From NCBI GenBank assembly GCA_963715985.1, contig CAVQSP010000022.1, forward strand, positions 1 to 40,267: a stretch of 40,267 nt of DNA, written 5' to 3'. Shown here piece after piece: positions 7,573 to 24,860 of this stretch (positions are counted from its first letter, which is position 1; each line of letters starts with the position of its first letter). This stretch comes from an uncultured Thermoleophilia bacterium. GTDB taxonomy: Bacteria; Actinomycetota; Thermoleophilia; UBA2241. The notes under the pieces were generated by a model. It did not search any database and was not told the DNA's origin. It saw only the letters and a list, made by a program, of their open reading frames with translations. A program made the position numbers and the translations under genes.

Positions 7573-9482
7573 ATGGCAGTAGAACGAGACGATCCGCGCC
7601 TGGCCCGCGATGAATCCGGGCTTGCAGCGGCCGGCACCACCGACCGCCTGCACCGGCGTGACGACGCGCGGCTGGTGGAGGCGCTGCGGGCGGATCGGCC
7701 CGGCGCCTTCGCCGAGCTCGTGACGGACTACCAGAACGCCGTGTTCAGCCTGGCGCTGCGTCTCGTCCGCGACCGCGAGGACGCGCGCGACGTGACGCAG
7801 GACGTCTTCCTCAAGGCGTATCGGCGCATCCCTCATATGCAGGGCGAGCTGCACCTCTGGGCATGGCTGTACCGGGTGACGGTGAACACGTGCTGGGACC
7901 ATCTGCGGGCGGCAAGCCGGCGGCCGCTGCCGTCCGACGAGGCCGACATGCTCGCCGAGACCGGACCCGCGGACGACGGGGAGCGAGCCGAGCTCTCCCG
8001 GCTCTTTTCGCAGAGCCTCGCCGCGCTCTCGCCGCGCCAACAGGCGGCGCTCCTGCTCAAGGACGTCCACGGTCTGAACCACTCCGACATCGCAGACACA
8101 CTCGGCATCACCCGGGCGTCGTCCGAGATCCTGCTGTTCCGCGCCCGGCACTCCTTCAGGCGCGCGTACACTGCGCTGGTGGCCGAGGAGCCGGCGGCCG
8201 CGGTCTGTCGCGTCGCGGAGCACGCGGCCGCCGCGTCCGTGGGCGGGCGTCTGAGCGCCGCACAGCGTCGCAGGATCAGCGCTCACGCACGCACGTGCCC
8301 CGCGTGCCGCAAGGTCGTGGACGGCTGGCAGGGTCCGCAGGCCGTCGGGCTTGCCCTGGCGCTGCCGATGGTGGCCGCTCCGCATCTGTTCGGGGCGCAC
8401 GCCGGCGCGTCTGCGGCGGCCGGTGCCGGGCTGGCCGGCGCCGGGGCTTCCGTGGGGGCGGGCGCTTCAGCTGCGGCCGGCGTCTCTGCCGGCGCGGCGT
8501 CCGCAGGTGTGGGCGCGGCGTCCGCGAGTGTCGCCGCGCCGCTCGCTCGCGGGAGGCGTGTCGTCCGGCGCGGCGCTTGGCGCCGCAGGCGGCCTCGCCG
8601 CGAAGGTGGCCGGGCTGGGGCTCGCCAAGGTGGCCGTGCTCGCGGTGGCCGCCACGTCCGTGGCCACGGTGGGCGGCGTGGAGGCGTACCGCAGCGACGC
8701 CGCCCATCATCCGCCGCCGCGCACGCCGGTGGCGAGCGCGGTCCGCGGTGACGCACGGCGCTCTTCCGGCGCCGCACGCAACGGCGGACGCGCTGGAGGT
8801 CGTCGTCGCGGGCGTCGCCGGGACCGACGTCGCCGGGACCGTCGCGGTCGCTCAGGAGCAGTCAGGGTCGAAGCGCCAGCTTCCGAAATGGCTGCGCAAG
8901 CAGCTCAAGGCGGCCAGGGCTCGCCGCCGCCGCGGCCGCGGGCCGCGGGTCCCGGGGCGGCCGGTGGGCCGGCGTCGCAGGATGGGTGCGTGCGCCGGTC
9001 GGAGAGGGCGCGGCATCGCGGGCGCCCGCGGCTTCGGCATCGGTCTCCTGCCTGGCAGCGGGCCGTGGCGCACGCGCTCAGGGGCGGCAGCGAGCGGCGG
9101 CCCGAAAAGGGCGCGAAGGGACGATCTCGGGCGGGCGTGGGGGCCGGGCTGGTGGCCGCCGCGTCGAAGCCCGTCCGCGGCGCAGCCGGCGCGGCCAGGG
9201 TCCAGCCGGGGACGAGGCCAGTCAAGCCGGCGGCGGACGGCGAGCACGACGAAGGGGACCACCGCGACCGCGCACCTGGGCGTGAAGCCGCTCGAGGCCC
9301 GCGCACCTGGGCGTGAAGCCGCTGAGGCCCGTCACCTCGGCGCGACGCCGCTGAGGCCCGCTCACCCGCGCGTGAAGCCGGCCGGGCCCGCCGCGACGGG
9401 CAAGCCCGCGACGCCGGCGAAGCCCCCGAAGCCGGAGAAGCCGGAGAAGCCCGTCGAGCCGGAGGGATCGGCGGGAACCTGA
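7573..9482 (+). CDS. ECF sigma-70 factor with fused zf-HC2/ZAS domain, probable TM helix and low-complexity tail (frameshifted; 3' end uncertain)
   Basis: Region 2 DARDVTQDVFLKAY..WLYRVTVNTCWDHLR; region 4 LSPRQQAALLLKDVHGLNHSDIADTLG; HARTCPAC; AKVAVLAVAATSVATVGG in another frame. Confidence 0.8.
9268..9380 (+). repeat. ~30-bp coding tandem repeat, about 4 copies (AHLGVKPLRP-like)
   Basis: CCGCGCACCTGGGCGTGAAGCCGCT occurs twice, followed by two diverged copies. Confidence 0.7.
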
Positions 9483-14095: not shown

Positions 14096-14172
<77 letters not shown>

Positions 14173-14236: not shown

Positions 14237-15331
14237 CTAAGCGGGTCCGCGCCCGCCGGCACCGGTCCCCACCGTGCGTCCCAGCTGTGCGAGCAGCGCC
14301 TTCAGGCTCGCGTTGATGGCCTCGGCGGTCTCGTGCACGGCCGCCTTCTCCGGGTAGATCTCGTACTTCTGGCGCTCCTCCAGCGGCGTGAGGTTGGGCA
14401 TCACCACGTTGCCGCCGCGCTGCAGGCCGTGCGCGCGGCCGCCCGACTTGTTGACGAGCGAGAGGGCGGTGGTCGCCGGCAGGTTGGAGTCCGGGCGCGC
14501 GAGGCGCGTGAGCGCGAGGACCTTGCAGGTCATGAGCTCGCTGTTGGGCGCCTGGTCCGGCGGCCAGTCGCCTGCGGCCCGCCGCCGCTCGAACTCCTGC
14601 CCCAGGGGGGTGGCGGGGTGAGGCAGGTACGGGCCGATGCCGATCATGTCCATGTCGAAGCCGCGGAACAGCTCGATGTCGTCGGCGATGCTGGCGTACG
14701 TCTGCCCGGGGATGCCGACCATGATGCCGGTGCCGGCCTCGTAGCCCAGCTCGTGCAGGCGGCGCAGGATGGCGAGCCGGTCGCTCACGCGGCCGGGCAG
14801 GTCCGGGTGGATGCGGCGGTAGAGGTCCGCGTCCGACGTCTCGAAGCGCAGCAGGTAGCGGTCGGCGCCGGCCTCACGCCACGCCGCGAGGTCCTCGTCC
14901 GGGCGCTCGCCGAGGCTCAGCGTGATGGCCGCGACGGAGGTCTCGGCGCGGATGCGGCGCAGCACGCCGGCCATCCACTCCGTCTCGATGCCGTAGTCCT
15001 CGCCGGCCTGCATGACCAGGGTGCCGTACCCGAACTCCACGGCCTTGTGGGCGCAGGCGAGGACCACGTCCTCCGACACCCGGTAGCGCTCGATGCCGCG
15101 GTTGGCGGCGCGGATGCCGCAGTAGGTGCAGCCGCGCACGCAGTAGTTGCTGAGCTCGATGAGGCCGCGGAGGTGCACGGCGTCGCCGACGTAGCGGCGC
15201 CGCGTCTCGTCCGCCGCGGCCCACAGCGTCTCCAGCCGCGCCTCGTCCTCCTCGCGCAGCCAGTGCTCGAGGGCTTCGCGCGTGAGCGCGGCGGAGACGC
15301 CGAGCGGCGGGGGAAGGGGGCGGGAGCTCAC
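14237..15331 (-). CDS. hydE: [FeFe]-hydrogenase H-cluster radical SAM maturase HydE
   Basis: RGLIELSNYCVRGCTYC, YLLRFET, PATTAL, GNVVMPNLTP, YEIYPEK. Confidence 0.93.
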   Translation of the reverse strand: MSSRPLPPPLGVSAALTREALEHWLREEDEARLETLWAAADETRRRYVGDAVHLRGLIELSNYCVRGCTYCGIRAANRGIERYRVSEDVVLACAHKAVEFGYGTLVMQAGEDYGIETEWMAGVLRRIRAETSVAAITLSLGERPDEDLAAWREAGADRYLLRFETSDADLYRRIHPDLPGRVSDRLAILRRLHELGYEAGTGIMVGIPGQTYASIADDIELFRGFDMDMIGIGPYLPHPATPLGQEFERRRAAGDWPPDQAPNSELMTCKVLALTRLARPDSNLPATTALSLVNKSGGRAHGLQRGGNVVMPNLTPLEERQKYEIYPEKAAVHETAEAINASLKALLAQLGRTVGTGAGGRGPA

Positions 15332-16666
15332 GGCGGGGAAGGGCGACGCGCCGCGGTCAGCAGAGGTCGTCGACGGCGGCGTCCGCCGGCAGGCCCGCCG
15401 TCACCGGCTCCGCCGGCACGTGGCCGGCCCGCCGCGCCCGCGCCGCCCGTCACGGCCTCGAGCGCGGCGGGGAAGGGCTGCAGCGCGCGCTCGAAGATCC
15501 CCAGGCTGAAGGCGATCACGAGGCCGTAGTTGGTGATCGGCACGCCCTGCTGCTTGCAGCGCAGGATGCGGCCCAGCATGGCGCGGCGGTTGAACGTGCA
15601 GGCGCCACAGTGGATGACGAGGTCCCAGCGCGAGAGGTCCTCGGGGAAGTCGTGGCCCTGCATGTGCTCGATGTTCAGCTTGCCGCCCACGTACTGCGTG
15701 AGCCAGCGGGGGATCTTGACGCGGCCGATGTCCTCGGCGATGGGGTGGTGGCTGCAGGCTTCGGCGATGAGGATGTTGGCGCCGCTCTTGAGGTCGTCCA
15801 CTGCCAGCGTGCCCTCGACCTGGCTCACGAGGTCGCCCTTGAAGCGGCTGAAGAGGATGCTGAAGCTGGTCATCGGCACCTCGGGTGGCGTGTCCGCCGC
15901 CACCTTGAGGAAGGCCTGCGAGTCGGTGACCACCAGCCGCGGCGGGCGGTTGAGGCGCTCGATGGCGTTGCGGAGCTCGCGCTCCTTCACCACGAGCGCC
16001 ATGGCGTCGCTGTCCATGAGGTCGCGGATGCTCTGCACCTGCGGCAGGATCAGGCGGCCGCGCGGGGCCTCCTTGTCGATGGGCACCACCAGCACGGCGA
16101 GCTCCCCGCGTGTTGACGAGGTCGCCGAGGATGGTGGGGTTGTCGATGAAGTCCGGCGGCGCGGCGTCGAGCAGCGCCTGGCGGAAGTCCAGCACGCCGC
16201 GCCCCTCGCTGGCCGCGGTCATCACCGGCGTGAGCTTGAGCTCCTGCAGGCGCGGCACCGGCGCGGGGCGGCTCACCAGGTCGCTCTTGTTGAACACCAC
16301 GACGACGGGCGTCTTGCGCTCCTGGAACTCGTCCAGGATGCCGTCCTCGTACTCGCCCCAGCTGCCGGCCTCCGTGACCAGCACGCCGAGGTCGGTGCGG
16401 TCGAACACCTGGGTGGTCTTCTTCGCGCGCAACTCGCCGAGCACGCCGACGTCGTCGATGCCGGCCGTGTCGATGAAGAGGATCGGGCCGAGGGGCAGCA
16501 GCTCCATCGGCTTCTCCACCGGGTCGGTGGTCGTGCCGGCGAAGTCGCTGACGATGCTGACCTCCTGGCGCGTGATGGCGTTGAGCAGGCTGCTCTTGCC
16601 CACGTTGCGGCGGCCGAAGATGCCGATGTGAAGCCGCATGCCTTTCGGGGCATCCATGAGACCCAT
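15328..16666 (-). CDS. hydF: [FeFe]-hydrogenase maturation GTPase HydF (frameshift near 16110)
   Basis: GRRNVGKSS, GTTTD, DTAG, NKSD, APRGRLILPQVQ, EACSHH, IHCGAC, TNYG. Confidence 0.93.
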
Positions 16667-17007
16667 CACTGCACCTCCAGGAGGCGAGGCTTCCTCGTGC
16701 CCGGGCGCGCCCGAGGCGCGCCATGCGCAGATCGAAGCCTCATGCCTTTCGGTGCGTCCATCAGGCCCATGGATGGCCTCCTGCGGCGTGCGACGGCTTC
16801 CGTCGCGCCCGGCGCGCGCCCGAGGCGCGCCCATGCGCGGATCGAAGGCCTCATGCCCTTTCGGTGGCGTCCATGAGACCCATGCACTCGGCACCTCCAG
16901 CGGGGCGAGGCTTCCTCGTGACGCCCCGGCGCGCCCGAGGCGCGCCATGCGCAGATCGAAGCCTCATGCCTTTCGGTGCGTCCATCAGGCCCATGCGGAG
17001 TCCTCCA
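16630..17007 (-). repeat. Tandem array of four hydF start regions (RBS + first 12 codons) separated by palindromic linkers
   Basis: 37-40-nt cores at 16630-16666, 16734-16770, 16844-16883 and 16958-16994; period 104-114 bp. Confidence 0.9.
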
Positions 17008-17016
17008 GTGCGGGCA

Positions 17017-18447
17017 TCAGTCCTCCACACCGCGGCCGCGGGTCTGCGGCGTGCCCAGGCGGCACACGGCCTCCGCGGTGAGCAGCTCGTCGTACTGCTC
17101 GGCGCTCAGGATGCCGTCGGCGACGACGACCTCGCGGATGGTCGCCCCGCGCTCCTTGGCCGCCCGCACCACGTCGCAGGCGGCGTCGTAGCCGATCTCG
17201 GGCACGAGGGCGGTGGCGGCGGCGCTGGACGTGCGCACGTGCGCCGCGCAGCGCTCCTCGTCGGCCTCGAGGCCCTCCACGCAGAAGCGCCGCAGGATCT
17301 CGCAGCTGCGGGCCAGCAGCGAGAGGCTCTGCAGCAGGCAGTCGGCGATGAGCGGCAGGAAGGCGTTGAGCTCGAGGCTGCCGAGGCCGGAGGCCGTGGC
17401 GATGGTGGCGTCGTAGCCGGCCACCATGAGCGCCGCCTGGCTCACCGCTTCGGGGATCACCGGGTTGACCTTGCCGGGCATGATGCTGGAGCCGGCCTGC
17501 CGCTGCGGCAGGCGGATCTCGCCGAGCCCGGCCTCCGGGCCGGAACTGAGCAGGCGCAGGTCGCCGCTGATCTTGAGCAGCGACATGGCGTGCGCCTTGA
17601 GGATGCCCGACACCTCCACGAACACGTCGGTGTTCTGCGTGGCCTCGGTGAGGTTCTCGGCACGCGCGAAGCCGATGCTCGTGAGCTCGCGGAGCGCGTC
17701 CACCACGCGGAAGATGTACTGGCGCGGCGCGGCGAAGCCGGTGCCGATGGCCGTGCCGCCCAGGTTCACCACGCGCAGGCGCTCCTCGCACTTGTAGATG
17801 CGCCAGCGGTCCCGGTTCAGGGCCTCGGCGTAGGCGCCCATCTCACGGCCCAGCGTGGTGAGCACGGCGTCCTGGTACTGCGTGCGGCCCACCTTGACGA
17901 CGTGGGCGAACTCCTGCTCCTTGGCCTGGAACGCCTCCTGCAGCGAGACGACCTGCTCCTCGAGCTTGTGGAGCAGCTCGATGGCGGCGAGGCGCAGCGC
18001 GGTGGGGTAGGTGTCGTTGGTGCTCTGGTGCAGGTTGAGGTCGTCCAGCGGCGAGACGCGTCCGTAGGAGCCGGGCGTCTCGCCGAGGATCTGCAGGGCG
18101 CGGTTGGCCAGCACCTCGTTGACGTTCATGTTGGTGCTGGTGCCCGCCCCGCCCTGCAGGCGGTCGACGACGATCTCGGCCGCGAGCCGGCCGTCGGCGA
18201 GCTCGCGGCAGGCGCGCTCGATGGCGTCCGCCTTGGCCTCGTCGCCGTCCCACACGCCGAGCGCCCGGTTGGTGAGCGCGCAGGCGAGCTTGACCGCGCC
18301 GAAGGCGCGCGCCAGCTCGCCGTGCACCGGCTCGCCGGCGAGCGGGAAGTTCTCGAGGGCGCGCTCGGTGTGGGCGCCGTGCAGGCACTGCGCCGGCACG
18401 GCCACCTCGCCGAGCAGGTCGTGCTCGATGCGCGTCTGGTCAGTCAC
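17017..18447 (-). CDS. aspA: Aspartate ammonia-lyase
   Basis: QGGAGTSTNMNVNEV, QSTNDTYPT, GRTQYQDA, GSSIMPGKVNP. Confidence 0.92.
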   Translation of the reverse strand: MTDQTRIEHDLLGEVAVPAQCLHGAHTERALENFPLAGEPVHGELARAFGAVKLACALTNRALGVWDGDEAKADAIERACRELADGRLAAEIVVDRLQGGAGTSTNMNVNEVLANRALQILGETPGSYGRVSPLDDLNLHQSTNDTYPTALRLAAIELLHKLEEQVVSLQEAFQAKEQEFAHVVKVGRTQYQDAVLTTLGREMGAYAEALNRDRWRIYKCEERLRVVNLGGTAIGTGFAAPRQYIFRVVDALRELTSIGFARAENLTEATQNTDVFVEVSGILKAHAMSLLKISGDLRLLSSGPEAGLGEIRLPQRQAGSSIMPGKVNPVIPEAVSQAALMVAGYDATIATASGLGSLELNAFLPLIADCLLQSLSLLARSCEILRRFCVEGLEADEERCAAHVRTSSAAATALVPEIGYDAACDVVRAAKERGATIREVVVADGILSAEQYDELLTAEAVCRLGTPQTRGRGVED

Positions 18448-18472: not shown

Positions 18473-18733
18473 TCAGCTCCCGAACACCATCTGCTTGATC
18501 TCCACGCCCTCGACGGCGCTCAGCTTGCCGGCCATGCCGTCCGCCTCCGCCGTGGTGCCGAAGAACTCGATGAGCACGACGCCGCTGGGCGAACAGACGG
18601 TGTCGTCGGTGTCGTGCAGGCCGATGCGCGTCTTGATGTTGCAGCCGTACTCGGTGAAGACCTTCTGCACATCCACCGCGTTCTTGAGCCTGTCGCTGAC
18701 GTGGATGCCGAGGATGATGTGCTGGTCGCTCAC
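18473..18733 (-). CDS. Small iron-only hydrogenase system regulator-like protein (TM1266-like, ACT-type fold)
   Basis: ILGIHVSDR..VQKVFTEYGCNIKTRIGLH..CSPSGVVLIE; located between hydG and aspA. Confidence 0.8.
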   Translation of the reverse strand: MSDQHIILGIHVSDRLKNAVDVQKVFTEYGCNIKTRIGLHDTDDTVCSPSGVVLIEFFGTTAEADGMAGKLSAVEGVEIKQMVFGS

Positions 18734-18788
18734 GGATGATCCCTTCTGATGACGATGGACGAGAAAGCTCCTCGGGGCCGGCGTGCGC

Positions 18789-20204
18789 TCAGCAGAGCAC
18801 GTCGCGCCCGCCGGCGCGGACCTTGGCGAGCATCTTCTCGGTGTGCTCGCGGCGCACCGGGTCCATCTCGGCGACCTTCTCGGTGATGAGCTTCTCGCCG
18901 ATCTCGCGCGTGCCCTCGCTGCCGTAGTCCTCGAGGTACTCGAGGAACGTGCTGAGCGCGTTGGGGTCGCAGTGATGCTTGATGTCGCCCGGCTTGGCGA
19001 GGTCCATGAAGTCCATGCCGGTGCGGCCGAGGCGGTAGCAGGCGGTGCAGAAGGAAGGCACGTAGCCGAGCTCGGCCACGTCGCGGATGACATCGTCCAG
19101 GCTGCGGTGGTCGCCGAGCTGGAACTGCGCGGAGTCGAACTTCTCGTCCTCCTCGTAGCCGCCGGGGTTGGTGCGGCTGCCGCCGCTGATCTGGCTCACG
19201 CCGAGGGCGAAGGTCTCGCGGCGCAGGTTGGCGGTCTCGCGCGTGCTCATGATCATGCCGGTGTAGGGCACCGCGAGGCGCAGGATGGCGACGAGCTTGC
19301 GGAAGTCGATGTCGCTCACGGGCATCGGGGGCTCCTCGGCCATGCTGCTGCCCGAGGCCGGCTCGAGGCGCGGCATGCTGATGGTGTGCGGGCCGACACC
19401 GTAGGCGCGCTCGAGCTCGCGCACGTGCTGCATGAGCGCGAGGATCTCGAAGCGCCAGTCGAAGAGGCCGAAGAGCACGCCGATGCCGACGTCGTCGATG
19501 CCTGCCTCCATCGCGCGGTGCATGCCGGTCACGCGCCAGTCGTAGTCCTTCTTCTTGCCGCCCACGTGCACGCGCTGGTACGTGTCGCGGTGGTAGGTCT
19601 CCTGGAAGAGCTGGTAGGTGCCGATGCCGGTGGCCTTGAGGGCGCGGAAGTCGTCCACGGTGAGAGGCGCCACATTGACGTTGACGCGGCGGATCTCGCC
19701 GTTGCCGCGCTTGACGTCGTAGATGGTGCCGATGGAGTCCAGCACGTAGCCGAACCCCCCGTGCTTGGGGTAGGACTCGCCGGCCACCAGCAGGATGCGC
19801 TTGTGGCCCTGGTCCACGAGGATCTCGACCTCGTGACGGATCTCCGCCTGGGTGAGGGCGCGTCGCTTGAGCTCCTTGTTCTTCACGCGGAAGGCGCAGT
19901 AGAGGCAGTCGTTGCTGCACAGGTTGCTGATGTAGAGCGGGGCGAAGAGCACGAGGCGCGCGCCGTAGATCATGTCCTTGGCGTAGCGCGCCGTCTCGAA
20001 GAGCTCGCCGAGCAGCTCGGGGTCGCTCACGGAGCTGAGGACGGCGACCTCGTCCATGTCCAGGCCGCCGAGCTCGCGCGCCTTGGCGAGGATCTCGCGC
20101 ACGCGCGCGGCGTCCTTGGTGGACGCTGCCTTGAGCGCCTCAGTGATGGCAGCCTCGTCGATGAAGCTGCCGGTCTCTACCACTCCCGCGGTCATGTGAC
20201 TCAC
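18789..20204 (-). CDS. hydG: [FeFe]-hydrogenase radical SAM maturase HydG
   Basis: FAPLYISNLCSNDCLYC, FQETYH, GPHTIS, auxiliary cluster CTAC-X22-C. Confidence 0.95.
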   Translation of the reverse strand: MSHMTAGVVETGSFIDEAAITEALKAASTKDAARVREILAKARELGGLDMDEVAVLSSVSDPELLGELFETARYAKDMIYGARLVLFAPLYISNLCSNDCLYCAFRVKNKELKRRALTQAEIRHEVEILVDQGHKRILLVAGESYPKHGGFGYVLDSIGTIYDVKRGNGEIRRVNVNVAPLTVDDFRALKATGIGTYQLFQETYHRDTYQRVHVGGKKKDYDWRVTGMHRAMEAGIDDVGIGVLFGLFDWRFEILALMQHVRELERAYGVGPHTISMPRLEPASGSSMAEEPPMPVSDIDFRKLVAILRLAVPYTGMIMSTRETANLRRETFALGVSQISGGSRTNPGGYEEDEKFDSAQFQLGDHRSLDDVIRDVAELGYVPSFCTACYRLGRTGMDFMDLAKPGDIKHHCDPNALSTFLEYLEDYGSEGTREIGEKLITEKVAEMDPVRREHTEKMLAKVRAGGRDVLC

Positions 20205-21714: not shown

Positions 21715-23652
21715 CTACTTCTGCGGGATGTACTTGCCGCGCGCCGTGTACGAGGTGTGCAGCAGCTCGTGGCTCTTGTGCCCGCAGGGGCCGTCGGTGA
21801 GGAACTCGGCGTAGGTCTTCGCGACCGCCGGGTTCTCGTAGGACTTGCGGACGTCGTATGCCTTGTCCTCCGCGTAGATCGCCTTGGCACGGGCGGCGCG
21901 GATCTCGGCATTGGTCGGGATCGGCTGTCCGCCGCCGCCCAGGCAGCCGCCCGGGCAGGCCATGAACTCGATGAAGTGGCACTGGCTGAACTGGCCGCCG
22001 GCCTTGATGTCGTCCATGACCTTCTTGGCGTTGGCCGTGCCGTGAGCAACAGCCACCTTGACGGTCACGCCGTTCAGCCACTCCCAGTCGGGCACGAGGT
22101 GCGCGAGGATCTCGGGCACCGGGCCGACCTTGGGGATGGTGATCTCGGCGTACTTGACGCCCTCGAAGCCGCGCACGGGGATGATGTCGCCGTGCTCGTA
22201 GATGCTCTCCACCTTCTCGCCGGTGACCAGCTCGATGACCGTGCGCAAGGCGCTCTCCATCACGCCGCCCGTGGCGCCGAAGATCACGCCGGAGCCGGTG
22301 GCCGTGCCGAAGGGGTCGTCGAAGTCGCTCTTCGGCAGGCTGGGCAGGTGCAGGCCGGCCTCCTTGAACATCTTGCCGAGCTCACGCGTGGTGATGCCGA
22401 AGTCCACGTCCTTGTAGCCGGAGTCGTGCATCTCGGGCCTGTTGCACTCGAACTTCTTGGCCGAGCACGGCATGAGGGCGCAGCTGACGATGGTGGCCGG
22501 GTCCCAGCCCATCTTGTCGGCGTAGTAGGTCTTGATGAGGGCCCCGAACATCTGCTGGGGGCTCTTGGCCGACGAGGCGTTGGGCAGGTACTCGGGGTAG
22601 AAGTGCTCGAGGTACTTGACCCAGCCCGGGGAGCAGCTCGTGAACTGGGGCAGGGCCACCGAGGCGTCGCCCTGGACCAGGGCGCCGTAGAGGCGCTGGA
22701 TGAGCTCGGTGCCCTCCTCGATGATCGTGAGGTCGGCGGTGAAGTTGGTGTCGAAGACGCTGTCGAAGCCGGCGCGGCGCAGGGCGGTGTTCATCTCGAA
22801 CGTCACCGGTGTGCCGGGCTCAAGGCCGAAGAGCTCGCCCATGGCCGAACGCGGCGCCGGGGCGGTCTGGATGACCACGTGCTTCTCGGGGTCGTCGATG
22901 GCCGCCCACACGGCGTCGGTCTCGTCCTTGGCGTACAGGGCGCCGGTGGGACAGCGGTTCACGCACTGGCCGCAGTTGATGCAGACCACGTCGCCGAGAG
23001 GCAGGTCCTCGAAGGTGGCGATCTGTGTACGTGCGCTGCGCCCGATGGCCTCGAGCACGCCGACTTCCTGCAGGTCGATGCAGGTGCGCACGCAGCGCCG
23101 GCAGTTGATGCACTTGTTCATGTCGCGCATCACGGAGTAGCTGGACGTGTCCGTCTCGAACAGCGGCTCGGTGGGATGGCCGAAGACGAACGAGTCGATG
23201 CCGTACTCTTCGGTGAGCGTCTGCAGCTCGCAGTTGCCGTTGCGCACGCAGCTGTAGCACTCGCCGCAGTGCTCGCTCAGCATGAGCTGCAGCATGTGGC
23301 GGCGTGCCTTGCGCACCTTGCGCGTGTGCGTCTTGACGCTGAGGCTGTTGGTGATGGGGTAGACGCAGGCGGCCTGCAGCGTGCGCTGGCCCTCGATGTC
23401 CACCACGCACATGCGGCAGACGCCGGCGACCTTGAGGTCCGGATGGTGGCAGAGCGTGGGGATCTCGACGCCCACCGTCTTGGCGGCGTCGAGGATGGTC
23501 ATGCCGAACGGCACCTTGGTCTGGATGCCGTCGATGGTCACGGAGACCAGCGCACCGATCGCCTCAGGGTTGTCGGCGACGGGCACGGTGCTGCCGACCT
23601 GGCTGGTCGGGATGCGCGGCCCCTTCTCGTCGTCTCGCAGGTTATCGGTCAT
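21715..23652 (-). CDS. hydA: Group A [FeFe]-hydrogenase catalytic subunit (hydA-2)
   Basis: [2Fe-2S], His-ligated and two further [4Fe-4S] motifs; H-cluster P1 TSCSPGW, P2 MPCSAKKFEC, P3 EFMACPGGCLGGGGQP. Confidence 0.95.
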   Translation of the reverse strand: MTDNLRDDEKGPRIPTSQVGSTVPVADNPEAIGALVSVTIDGIQTKVPFGMTILDAAKTVGVEIPTLCHHPDLKVAGVCRMCVVDIEGQRTLQAACVYPITNSLSVKTHTRKVRKARRHMLQLMLSEHCGECYSCVRNGNCELQTLTEEYGIDSFVFGHPTEPLFETDTSSYSVMRDMNKCINCRRCVRTCIDLQEVGVLEAIGRSARTQIATFEDLPLGDVVCINCGQCVNRCPTGALYAKDETDAVWAAIDDPEKHVVIQTAPAPRSAMGELFGLEPGTPVTFEMNTALRRAGFDSVFDTNFTADLTIIEEGTELIQRLYGALVQGDASVALPQFTSCSPGWVKYLEHFYPEYLPNASSAKSPQQMFGALIKTYYADKMGWDPATIVSCALMPCSAKKFECNRPEMHDSGYKDVDFGITTRELGKMFKEAGLHLPSLPKSDFDDPFGTATGSGVIFGATGGVMESALRTVIELVTGEKVESIYEHGDIIPVRGFEGVKYAEITIPKVGPVPEILAHLVPDWEWLNGVTVKVAVAHGTANAKKVMDDIKAGGQFSQCHFIEFMACPGGCLGGGGQPIPTNAEIRAARAKAIYAEDKAYDVRKSYENPAVAKTYAEFLTDGPCGHKSHELLHTSYTARGKYIPQK

Positions 23653-23654
23653 GC

Positions 23655-24860
23655 TCAGCTCCTCGCGGTGTCGGCCTGGGGGGTCCGGCTCGTGATCTCG
23701 TCGCCGAAGTGCTCCAGGATGGACATGAAGGCGTTGGAGCTGGTCTGACCGAGGCCGCACTTGGAGGCGACCTGCATGGTGATGTTCAGCTCGCGCAGCT
23801 CGTCGACGTACTCGGCCGAGCAGGTCCCCTCTTGCAGCATGTGCACGGCCTCGAGCATCTTGACGTTGCCCAGGCGGCAGGGCGTGCACTGGCCGCACGA
23901 CTCGTCCACGAAGAACTCGAGGAAGTTCTCGGCCACGTCCAGCATGTCGCGTTGCGGGCCGAAGACGATGACCGACCCGCCGGTCGGGATGTCCTCGAAG
24001 GCCATCTGGCGGGCGAACTCCTTGCGCGGCACGCAGGTACCGGAGGCGCCGCCGATCTGCACGGCCTTGGCGTCGCTGCCGCCGACCTCTTTGAGCAGGT
24101 CCGCGACGGTGATGCCGAAGGGGAACTCGTACACGCCCGGCTTCTCGCAGTCGCCGGAGATGCTGAACAGCTTGAAGCCCGTGGAGCGGTCGGTGCCGAA
24201 GCTCTTGAACCAGTCCACGCCCTTGGCGAAGATGCAGGCCGCCGAGGCCAGGGTCTCCACGTTGTTGACGGTGGTGGGGCGGTGGCGGAAGCCGGCGACC
24301 ACCGGGAACGGCGGGCGGTTGCGGGGCTCGCCGCGGAAGCCCTCGAGCGACTCGATGAGAGCCGTCTCCTCGCCGCACACGTAGGCGCCGGCGCCCAGGG
24401 CGACGATGATGTCGAAGTCGAAGCCCTTGACTCCGCAGACGTCCTTGCCCAGCAGGCCGTCGGCGCGACGCTGCTTGATGCAGGCGTTGAGGTGAGAGCG
24501 CAGGTACGTGTACTCGCCGCGCAGGTAGACGATGCCCAGCTGGGCGCCGATGGCGCGGCCGGCGATGGTCATGCCGGCGAACACCAGGTCCGGGAACTCG
24601 GTGAGGATGACGCGGTCCTTGAACGTACCGGGCTCACCCTCGTCGGCGTTGCAGATGACGTACTTCTCGTCGCCCTTCTCCGAACCGGCGAAGTTCCACT
24701 TCATCCCGGTGGGGAAGCCGGCGCCGCCGCGACCCTTCATGCCGGACGCGGAGACTGTGTCGACGATATCCGCGCGGGACATGGCGAGGGCGGCCTTGAG
24801 GCCCTCGTTGCCGTCGATCGAAGCGAAGGTGAGGGTGTTCCCCTGAGTCTCGATGCTCAT
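23655..24860 (-). CDS. hydB: Short NuoF/HydB-like FMN/NADH-binding subunit (401 aa)
   Basis: GRGGAGFPTG, NADEGEPGTFKDR, GAGAYVCGEETA, SCGQCTPCR, CGLG; no extra ferredoxin domains. Confidence 0.92.
   Translation of the reverse strand: MSIETQGNTLTFASIDGNEGLKAALAMSRADIVDTVSASGMKGRGGAGFPTGMKWNFAGSEKGDEKYVICNADEGEPGTFKDRVILTEFPDLVFAGMTIAGRAIGAQLGIVYLRGEYTYLRSHLNACIKQRRADGLLGKDVCGVKGFDFDIIVALGAGAYVCGEETALIESLEGFRGEPRNRPPFPVVAGFRHRPTTVNNVETLASAACIFAKGVDWFKSFGTDRSTGFKLFSISGDCEKPGVYEFPFGITVADLLKEVGGSDAKAVQIGGASGTCVPRKEFARQMAFEDIPTGGSVIVFGPQRDMLDVAENFLEFFVDESCGQCTPCRLGNVKMLEAVHMLQEGTCSAEYVDELRELNITMQVASKCGLGQTSSNAFMSILEHFGDEITSRTPQADTARS

Follow-up and report, generated by a model that had tools for sequence, protein, structure and literature searches.

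Duplicated hydF start regions with conserved hairpin linkers at the aspA–hydF junction in a family of Thermoleophilia

The contig CAVQSP010000022.1 of an uncultured Thermoleophilia bacterium (40,267 nucleotides (nt), hereafter the window) carries an array in which the ribosome site and the first 12 codons of hydF, the gene of the [FeFe]-hydrogenase maturase GTPase, occur four times. Three extra copies sit between aspA and the real hydF start, and a GC-rich hairpin linker follows each of them. The linker is a conserved RNA structure, with codons 10–13 of the duplicated start as the pairing partner in its outer helix, and comparison of related sequences indicates that the arrangement of short reading frames running through it is under constraint. 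On balance we lean towards the reading that the unit is a translated, structured leader, a relay or an attenuator, which was born of tandem duplication and would tune the amount of HydF. HydF is the scaffold on which [FeFe]-hydrogenases acquire their [2Fe] subcluster, AspA is currently believed to supply it with ammonium, and aspA is reported to adjoin hydF almost always (PMC11736057). The window is the whole of contig C22 of genome G000, which comprises 4.35 Mb in 22 contigs at 70% G+C, with 88.8% completeness and 7.3% contamination. The genes and array elements described below lie on the minus strand of the window.

Copies of the hydF start and their number

The four start codons lie at 16994, 16883, 16770 and 16666, the last being that of the real gene (ATG 16666–16664), and the distances between them are 111, 113 and 104 nt from the distal to the hydF-proximal end. 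The distal unit (copy 4, 16884..16994, 111 nt) consists of a ribosome site, the ATG at 16994, 12 hydF-like codons and a hairpin linker, and its reading frame continues in phase into copy 3. In the middle unit (copy 3, 16771..16883, 113 nt) indels end the frame after 10 codons. The hydF-proximal unit (copy 2, 16667..16770, 104 nt) is the start of an upstream frame of 34 codons, MGLMDAPKGMRLRSAHGAPRARPGTRKPRLLEVQ; the A of this frame's TGA is also that of the hydF ATG, so that the stop lies at −2. At the other end of the array the aspA stop (TGA 17019–17017) overlaps, in the sequence TGATG, the ATG of a 10-codon mini-frame, MPALEDSAWA (16985..17017), and the TGA of this mini-frame in turn overlaps the ATG that is codon 4 of copy 4. 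The first-pass annotation of this DNA had described four start-region copies with conserved palindromic linkers, a 34-codon frame that overlaps the hydF ATG and a 10-codon frame that bridges the aspA stop and copy 4. Coordinates, spacing and a direct reading of the sequence bear out each of these.

Copies 2 and 4 match the real start at 31 of 36 positions and all five differences are synonymous, as had also been claimed, so that these two copies and the real start all encode MGLMDAPKGMRL. Because copies 2 and 4 share 99% identity across 73 nt, they count as one observation. Copy 3 matches the real start at 22 of 36 positions without gaps, and its unit holds four single-base insertions in the first 55 nt and more indels beyond. 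The palindrome GGCGCGCC-TCG-GGCGCGCC occurs three times in the array at no more than one mismatch, once in each linker, and is followed on its 3′ side by a second small hairpin. At up to two mismatches the window holds four matches against 0.06 expected, a number that none of 100 shuffles reached.

Searches for other signals in this region were negative. Both strands of 16400–17200 were free of terminator-like sites (a GC-rich hairpin with a T run), and no canonical promoter was found in the array. Against Rfam 15 the same interval gave no match to a known RNA family; the best score was 25.9 bits against a gathering score of 60, and all four matches listed were far below threshold. Inspection by eye revealed no convincing slippery site upstream of the outer helix for programmed frameshifting into hydF. 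A diversity-generating retroelement was considered and rejected, the five differences being, by eye, not adenine-specific; no reverse transcriptase search was made.

The reliability of the assembly was assessed by comparing 16000–17600 with short-read contigs from four public wetland and soil runs (X1, X2, X16 and X18). In the assembly hydF is split into two frames (15401..16948 and 15328..16095) by one surplus base at 16108. Contigs of all four runs lack this base, which is the only difference between the window and the contigs of X1 and X2. In nature hydF is therefore intact and no pseudogene; its split comes from an insertion made in assembly, and it follows that indel errors do occur in this assembly. 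Short-read contigs from related strains span 16623–16771, which covers the hydF start, the linker and copy 2, with six differences, and others span 16966–17048, which covers the end of aspA and copy 4. The presence of one extra unit or more, joined to aspA on one side and to hydF on the other, is therefore real. The interval of copy 3 (16810–16917) had no contig from any of the four runs, which is an absence of cover and not evidence of absence. One X16 contig jumps from 16642 to 17047 at 90% likeness with a 29-nt side, and it probably stems from a relative with a single start.

That there are three extra units rather than one, the feature specific to this window, is thus the least secure part of the description. 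There is a real possibility, although it is not the one that we favour, that the three-unit array is an artefact of assembly or population, with one extra unit or mixed copy numbers in the cells and a middle unit that is a badly polished consensus. The proven insertion at 16108 and the four single-base insertions within 55 nt of the copy 3 unit both fit this explanation. Genome G205, from another genus, contains the only other multi-unit array that was found (L166, C25:169550-170300), and its middle copy likewise shows four single-base insertions when compared with the adjacent copy. Moreover, copies 2 and 4 are identical across 68–73 nt, so the covering contigs would also fit a single extra unit. 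On the other hand, tandem repeats are more usually collapsed than expanded by long-read assemblers, the changes in the middle linker are paired and make up a coherent variant hairpin of its own (GCGACGG-AAG-CCGTCGC), and G205, an independent genome, also has more than one unit, namely two. This explanation bears on copy number alone, since the single-unit leader is confirmed in short-read assemblies (L053, identical to G124, and Logan contigs). As for the oddities of copy 3 to which the first-pass annotation had drawn attention, the extra bases are present in the sequence, but they look like consensus errors and are probably noise. As a practical warning, inner array units and nearby homopolymers in long-read metagenome assemblies carry indel errors that mimic biology.

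Occurrence, origin and divergence of the unit

A covariance model built from the linker, R1, was applied to the family, to a sample of the class and to G000. Within G000 it found the three units, weak opposite-strand matches on those same units and nothing else. The comparison of aspA–hydF junctions across relatives that had been proposed at the outset was carried out on 38 distinct loci of one genus, and units were found in G000 and five relatives. The other 32 loci have a single start, with hydF a few to about 76 nt behind aspA. A single extra unit, its linker clearly homologous, is present in each of G015, G063, G004 and G048; in G010 the unit is truncated and its frame begins directly on the aspA stop, and G000 alone among the 38 has three extra units. 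R1 also matched G124, G070, G205 and G168 in two further genera, giving 10 of 89 genomes in three genera of one Thermoleophilia family. A match in G012 (E = 0.0097, 26 bits) was gone at a stricter threshold. All inspected R1 loci lie between aspA and hydF. In a class sample of 151 genomes, R1 matched none outside the family (f1, 7 of 25). In a wider collection, 78 hydF loci were checked for a second copy of their own start further upstream. Only L049 and L053, members of this group, had one, and there were no positives among the 63 loci whose titles name other phyla. A metagenome scan with a degenerate linker motif returned 30 stretches, of which 29 were chance matches and one (L146) was genuine but at a contig end, so no new unit was obtained.

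On a tree of the flanking sequences the unit-bearing genomes are scattered, with the deepest branches included, and the linker types follow the sides of the tree, 110 nt on one side and 101–107 nt on the other. This pattern fits one ancient origin followed by many losses. Recombination between the direct repeats would delete the unit cleanly. Living relatives still display the intermediates, namely the intact unit, a decayed hairpin, a truncated unit at the aspA stop, multi-unit arrays and clean loss.

The linker is also informative about how the unit arose. Its first 33 nt resemble hydF codons 13–23 in register, within the top 0–8% of null windows in 8 of 10 genomes, and by our own reading its 3′ part is similar to what precedes the first copy in G015, G004, G070 and G000. 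The resemblance of the two parts to flanking hydF and upstream sequence fits a plain tandem duplication of a segment from about −45 to +60, and on these sequence comparisons the linker probably derives from the hydF codons after codon 12. Copy and real start are identical at 36 of 36 positions within each of G015, G004 and G070, and between G015 and G004 we counted 11 differences over the 36 positions of the real start. Since the copies are often identical within genomes while starts differ much more between species, the copies have been homogenised by conversion.

The first-pass annotation had argued that neutral duplication should not leave only synonymous differences, so that either the peptides or their translation would be under selection or an inserting element would be at work. 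This argument proved weak. At four of the five differing sites the state in the upstream copy is the most frequent one when 37 further real hydF starts from the genus are compared, and the G000 start has a minority state. Most of the changes thus occurred on the functional gene, where only synonymous ones survive, and selection on the extra peptides is not required.

The alternative named there was a small element, mobile or integrating, that inserts repeatedly at gene starts and restores their 5′ end. The layout does resemble direct repeats around an insert, and the upstream copy of G000 is identical to the hydF start of G056 at 35 of 36 positions, as if it were the start of another lineage. 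However, a dispersed mobile repeat should occur at several unrelated loci, and a blastn search of the array against all 22 contigs gave only self matches, everything else being no longer than 21 nt with E of at least 0.086. The linker is thus absent from the rest of the 4.35-Mb genome, R1 finds the unit only between aspA and hydF in the family, and the linker is inherited in step with its flanks, as its length types show. To our knowledge, no transposase fits a target duplication of 36–76 nt around an insert of 29–70 nt. We regard this origin as extremely improbable.

Other species of the group have small structures of their own at this junction. In the single-start loci L007 and L010 (G006 and G020), a different spacer of about 76 nt separates aspA and hydF; within it are a hairpin, GCCCGT…ACGGGC, and a small frame of its own whose start codon overlaps the aspA stop (TGATG or TAATG). 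In L021 and L038 (G014 and G064), a 14-nt partial duplicate of hydF codons 4–8 (ATG-N-N-GGACGC-N-CC) lies directly on the aspA stop and gives rise to a frame of 7 codons with its stop within the hydF start region. Complementarity between hydF codons 11–12 (CGC CTC) and the ribosome site of the same gene is seen in several single-start species. The aspA–hydF junction seems prone to such duplications.

RNA structure and translation signals of the leader

Structure statistics were computed on 11 rows from the 10 unit-bearing genomes. RNAalifold proposed an 8-base-pair helix, P1, which joins strand a (codons 10–13 of the duplicated start, G-A/C-GGCT-N-C) to strand b in the linker and encloses the GC hairpin P2. 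In the window the proximal structured element lies at 16681..16746 (R1 82.3 bits), with strand a at 16734–16741, P2 at 16704–16722 and strand b at 16686–16693. The middle element is at 16788..16857 (56 bits, P2 16813–16831) and the distal element at 16902..16970 (72.8 bits, P2 16928–16946). Over P1 and P2 together 92.4% of cells are paired, against 30.8–46.6% when the partners are slid by 1–3 columns. Double-sided changes occur in 5 of 16 pairs, and the pair 40–83 is found in three types (GC, UA and CG) that follow the third base of the Leu-12 codon. For covariation the alignment scores 0.294, compared with 0.125 ± 0.022 in shuffles, and none of 500 shuffles reached 0.294.

Strand b has a second potential partner, strand a′, which is the real hydF codons 10–13 (GCGGCTTC, 16630..16637) and forms 7 of 8 pairs with it in G000. 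Across the genomes 95.2% of b:a cells and 96.4% of b:a′ cells are paired, the latter with double changes in 3 of 8 pairs. Where a and a′ differ, strand b sides with a in G000 and G063 (8/8 pairs with a, 7/8 with a′) and with a′ in G168 (8/8 with a′, 6/8 with a) and G048. Being equally complementary to both, strand b could pair with either, and the duplicated piece can therefore act as a decoy for b:a′ pairing. Two of the five synonymous differences in G000 fall in pairing positions of the upstream copy, AGG/CGG in P1 and GCA/GCC in a predicted basal helix that is present in some species only; this is suggestive of an effect of the predicted RNA structure on these sites.

Several observations weigh against a regulatory role for this structure or limit what can be drawn from it. 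Strands a and a′ are nearly identical, so the data cannot tell which helix forms. By our own reading P2 has decayed in G048, where 7 of its 8 pairs are broken. With 10 related genomes the sample is small, and covariation controls overstate significance for sequences of such close kinship, while perfect GC palindromes could persist by template-switch mutation without selection. Partition-function folding was used to compare the complete leader with the same leader in which a 30-nt footprint was kept unpaired, and with the isolated hydF initiation region. In seven genomes the leader did not consistently mask the hydF ribosome site or start codon, and holding its 5′ strand open with the footprint did not consistently unmask them, so the direction of any effect is not set by the folds. 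Minimum-free-energy folds differ between species and are long rods in G000 and G015. We therefore relied only on P1 and P2. The resemblance of the linker to hydF, on which the proposed origin of the unit draws, is likewise not significant in local alignment with hydF codons 13–42 (shuffle p = 0.377, 0.128, 0.057, 0.841, 0.079 and 0.13). Finally, 32 of the 38 genus loci have lost the unit or never had it, and it is therefore dispensable.

The translation signals fit the translational relay that had been raised in the first-pass annotation. The upstream copy has an ATG or GTG start codon and a purine-rich ribosome site in 10 of 10 unit-bearing genomes, even where the real start differs (ATG versus TTG in G063, ATG versus a GVG-type GTG in G048, GTG versus ATG in G124 and G205). 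The upstream frames comprise 30–39 codons and lie immediately 5′ of hydF. The eight clean hydF-proximal spacings are 101, 101, 104, 104, 104, 107, 110 and 110 nt, all of them 2 modulo 3. Relative to the hydF start, the frames stop at −14, −8, −2 (G000), +1, +1, +7, +7, +7 and +7, and by our own reading the truncated unit of G010 also stops at +7. With this spacing the stop of the frame falls within −14 to +7 in all 10 genomes, and the frame neither fuses to HydF nor reads far into it out of frame. The leader stop overlaps the hydF start as TGATG in G000, GTGA in G015 and TTGA in G063, and by our own reading TGATG also joins aspA to the leader in G000, G015, G004, G205 and G010. The mini-frames are very probably translated, and translation of the leader may in turn regulate hydF; both points are drawn from sequence.

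Leader codons 13–16, which are not hydF sequence, vary mostly at third positions (1.32 bits, against 0.40 at first and second positions; exact permutation p = 2/495) in a region with the motif (H/Q/R)(T/S)A(H/L/I)G. This motif after residue 12, with its third-position variation, is also what might be expected if the peptides themselves acted, for example as a 34-residue micro-protein mimicking the HydF N-terminus. The first 12 codons of copy and real start, however, differ non-synonymously in G063 (MSLMDAPSSMRL versus LSLMEAPKGMRL), G048 (MGLADTTRGMQL versus VGLMDTPRGMRL) and G168 (MVLMDTPNAMRM versus MGLMDTPKGMRL), and the G010 copy lacks residues 1–9. Because of this divergence and this loss, the N-terminal decoy peptides that had been proposed earlier are unlikely. 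The C-terminal halves of the peptides are poorly conserved, and 12 residues ahead of the P-loop would hardly fold alone. An active peptide is accordingly an explanation to which we attach very little weight.

The main rival to the leader reading is that the unit is a neutral leftover, a functionless duplicate produced by slippage or unequal recombination and slowly lost, in which gene conversion keeps the copies alike, template-switch mutation maintains the palindromes and the frame traits result only from selection against harm, namely against a frame that would continue into hydF. This rival would explain the absence of the unit from the 32 single-start genus loci and from 79 of 89 family genomes, the scatter of its bearers over the flank tree, which fits many losses, and the complete identity of copy and real start in three genomes. 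It is also in keeping with the lack of a consistent predicted effect on ribosome-site accessibility, with the ease with which open frames arise by chance at 70% G+C and with small tandem duplications at other gene ends in G000 (C8:52755, 35 nt; C15:131293, 76 nt). It does not readily account for the persistence of the unit with homologous linkers in three genera, for compensatory changes in both helices, one position having three pair types, or for the co-variation of strand b with the real hydF codons in G168. The third-position variation of leader codons 13–16, outside hydF, and start codons that are kept in 10 of 10 genomes though they differ from the real start in several also speak against it. 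We consider a neutral leftover possible but rather unlikely.

Gene context, known systems and a possible function

The array lies in a series of genes on one strand. The series begins with the [FeFe]-hydrogenase gene (21715–24378), which is followed by a sensor kinase gene, a hydG-like radical SAM gene (18789–20204), a TM1266-like gene (18473–18760), aspA (17017..18447), the repeat array, hydF (15328..16666), a hydE-like radical SAM gene (14237..15331) and, last, tRNA-Pro (14096–14172). The aspA product belongs to the aspartate ammonia-lyase family (Pfam Lyase_1, 6e-79, and FumaraseC_C), and HydF has the Pfam domains MMR_HSR1, HydF_dimer and HydF_tetramer. The gene downstream of hydF has a Radical_SAM domain and shares its operon context, and the name hydE is suggested by this position.

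Other repeats occur in the same genome. At C8:52755-52830 a 35-nt tandem duplication includes a ribosome site and an ATGATG start; the frame of its first copy ends in a TGA that overlaps the next ATG, which makes it a second, much smaller start-region duplication in G000. At C15:131293-131445 a 76-nt tandem duplication comprises the last codons of a minus-strand gene, its stop and a hairpin, and the motif TCAGCCCATGCCGAC occurs there three times. Another repeat, which has a period of 51 nt and includes a GC hairpin (…GTGCGCC-TCCG-GCGCCCC…), is dispersed in tandem over several intergenic sites (C13:292702, C14:124328, C8:90680, C13:536776, C14:305678, C17:263021 and others), and its sequence is unrelated to the hydF linker. 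Tandem Repeats Finder also detected repeats with periods of 29–30, 18 and 9 nt at 9268–9464 of the window.

The closest documented analogue of the hydF unit is found in the erm(C) attenuator, where tandem duplications add a truncated erm(C) with an extra SD2/IR4 and thereby free the real start (PMC3429524). Both are short tandem duplications across the ribosome site and the 5′ end of a gene, and in both the truncated upstream copy offers a second partner for a strand, the inhibitory one in erm(C) and strand b, which can pair with a or a′, in hydF. The erm(C) duplications, however, are recent laboratory or clinical mutants that abolish regulation, whereas the hydF unit is conserved in three genera with covariation. 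The hydF decoy, moreover, lies 5′ of strand b, and no masking of the ribosome site is predicted.

In its layout the hydF leader resembles leader-peptide attenuators and arrest-peptide leaders (ermCL, SecM-secA and MifM-yidC2). Shared features are a brief reading frame upstream that has a start codon of its own, leader coding sequence that takes part in a stem-loop, and a few conserved codons at the point where the helix begins. The hydF leader differs from them in being a paralogue of the 5′ end of the very gene that it would regulate, and we know of no other natural leader of this kind. Stop–start coupling, or termination–reinitiation, has been described elsewhere (PMC6728339, PMC10666635). 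The array is similar in its three overlaps, that of the aspA stop with an ATG, that of the mini-frame stop with a Met codon of copy 4 and that of the leader stop with the hydF ATG, but its coupling would pass through one to three non-functional mini-frames instead of joining two genes directly. Since each unit has its own strong ribosome site, such coupling is not strictly needed.

According to the leader reading that we prefer, a segment of about 100–110 nt across the hydF start would have been tandemly duplicated in an ancestor of this Thermoleophilia family, and a minority of species would have kept the duplicate as a leader between aspA and hydF, its junction remodelled into a hairpin. The proposed leader has three parts, namely a complete second initiation site (ribosome site, start codon and 12 hydF codons), a short upstream frame of 32–39 codons that crosses the linker and terminates at the hydF start or a few bases from it, and the GC-rich hairpin P2 within the 8-base-pair P1 formed by strands a and b. 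Ribosomes would load at the upstream copy, or pass from aspA through the overlapping stop and start codons, and translate the leader, melting P1 and P2. They would then terminate at the hydF start and re-initiate there. The balance of a:b and b:a′ pairing, possibly together with pausing at leader codons 13–16, may set the level of HydF relative to AspA. The third-position variation of these codons is the one hint of ribosome stalling on the leader. The three-unit array, if real, would be a secondary expansion by unequal recombination.

A more specific and distinctly speculative version of this proposal is a three-segment RNA switch made from a paralogous decoy of hydF's own coding start. In such a switch the leader peptide (…MRL-H-T-A-x-G-G-P…) would pause the ribosome over strand a on a signal of H-cluster assembly, and the pause would decide which partner strand b takes, the decoy or hydF codons 10–13, and so set HydF synthesis relative to AspA. 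Ammonium, GTP and iron–sulfur status can be named as candidate signals, although these are guesses.

A literature search on hydF leader peptides returned no report of post-transcriptional control at the aspA–hydF junction. If the switch exists, [FeFe]-hydrogenase maturation would have its first described cis-regulatory RNA. The switch would also be a natural example of a regulator born from tandem duplication of the start of the gene that it regulates. In this family a mutational accident across a start codon may have been captured and kept as a structured, translated leader.

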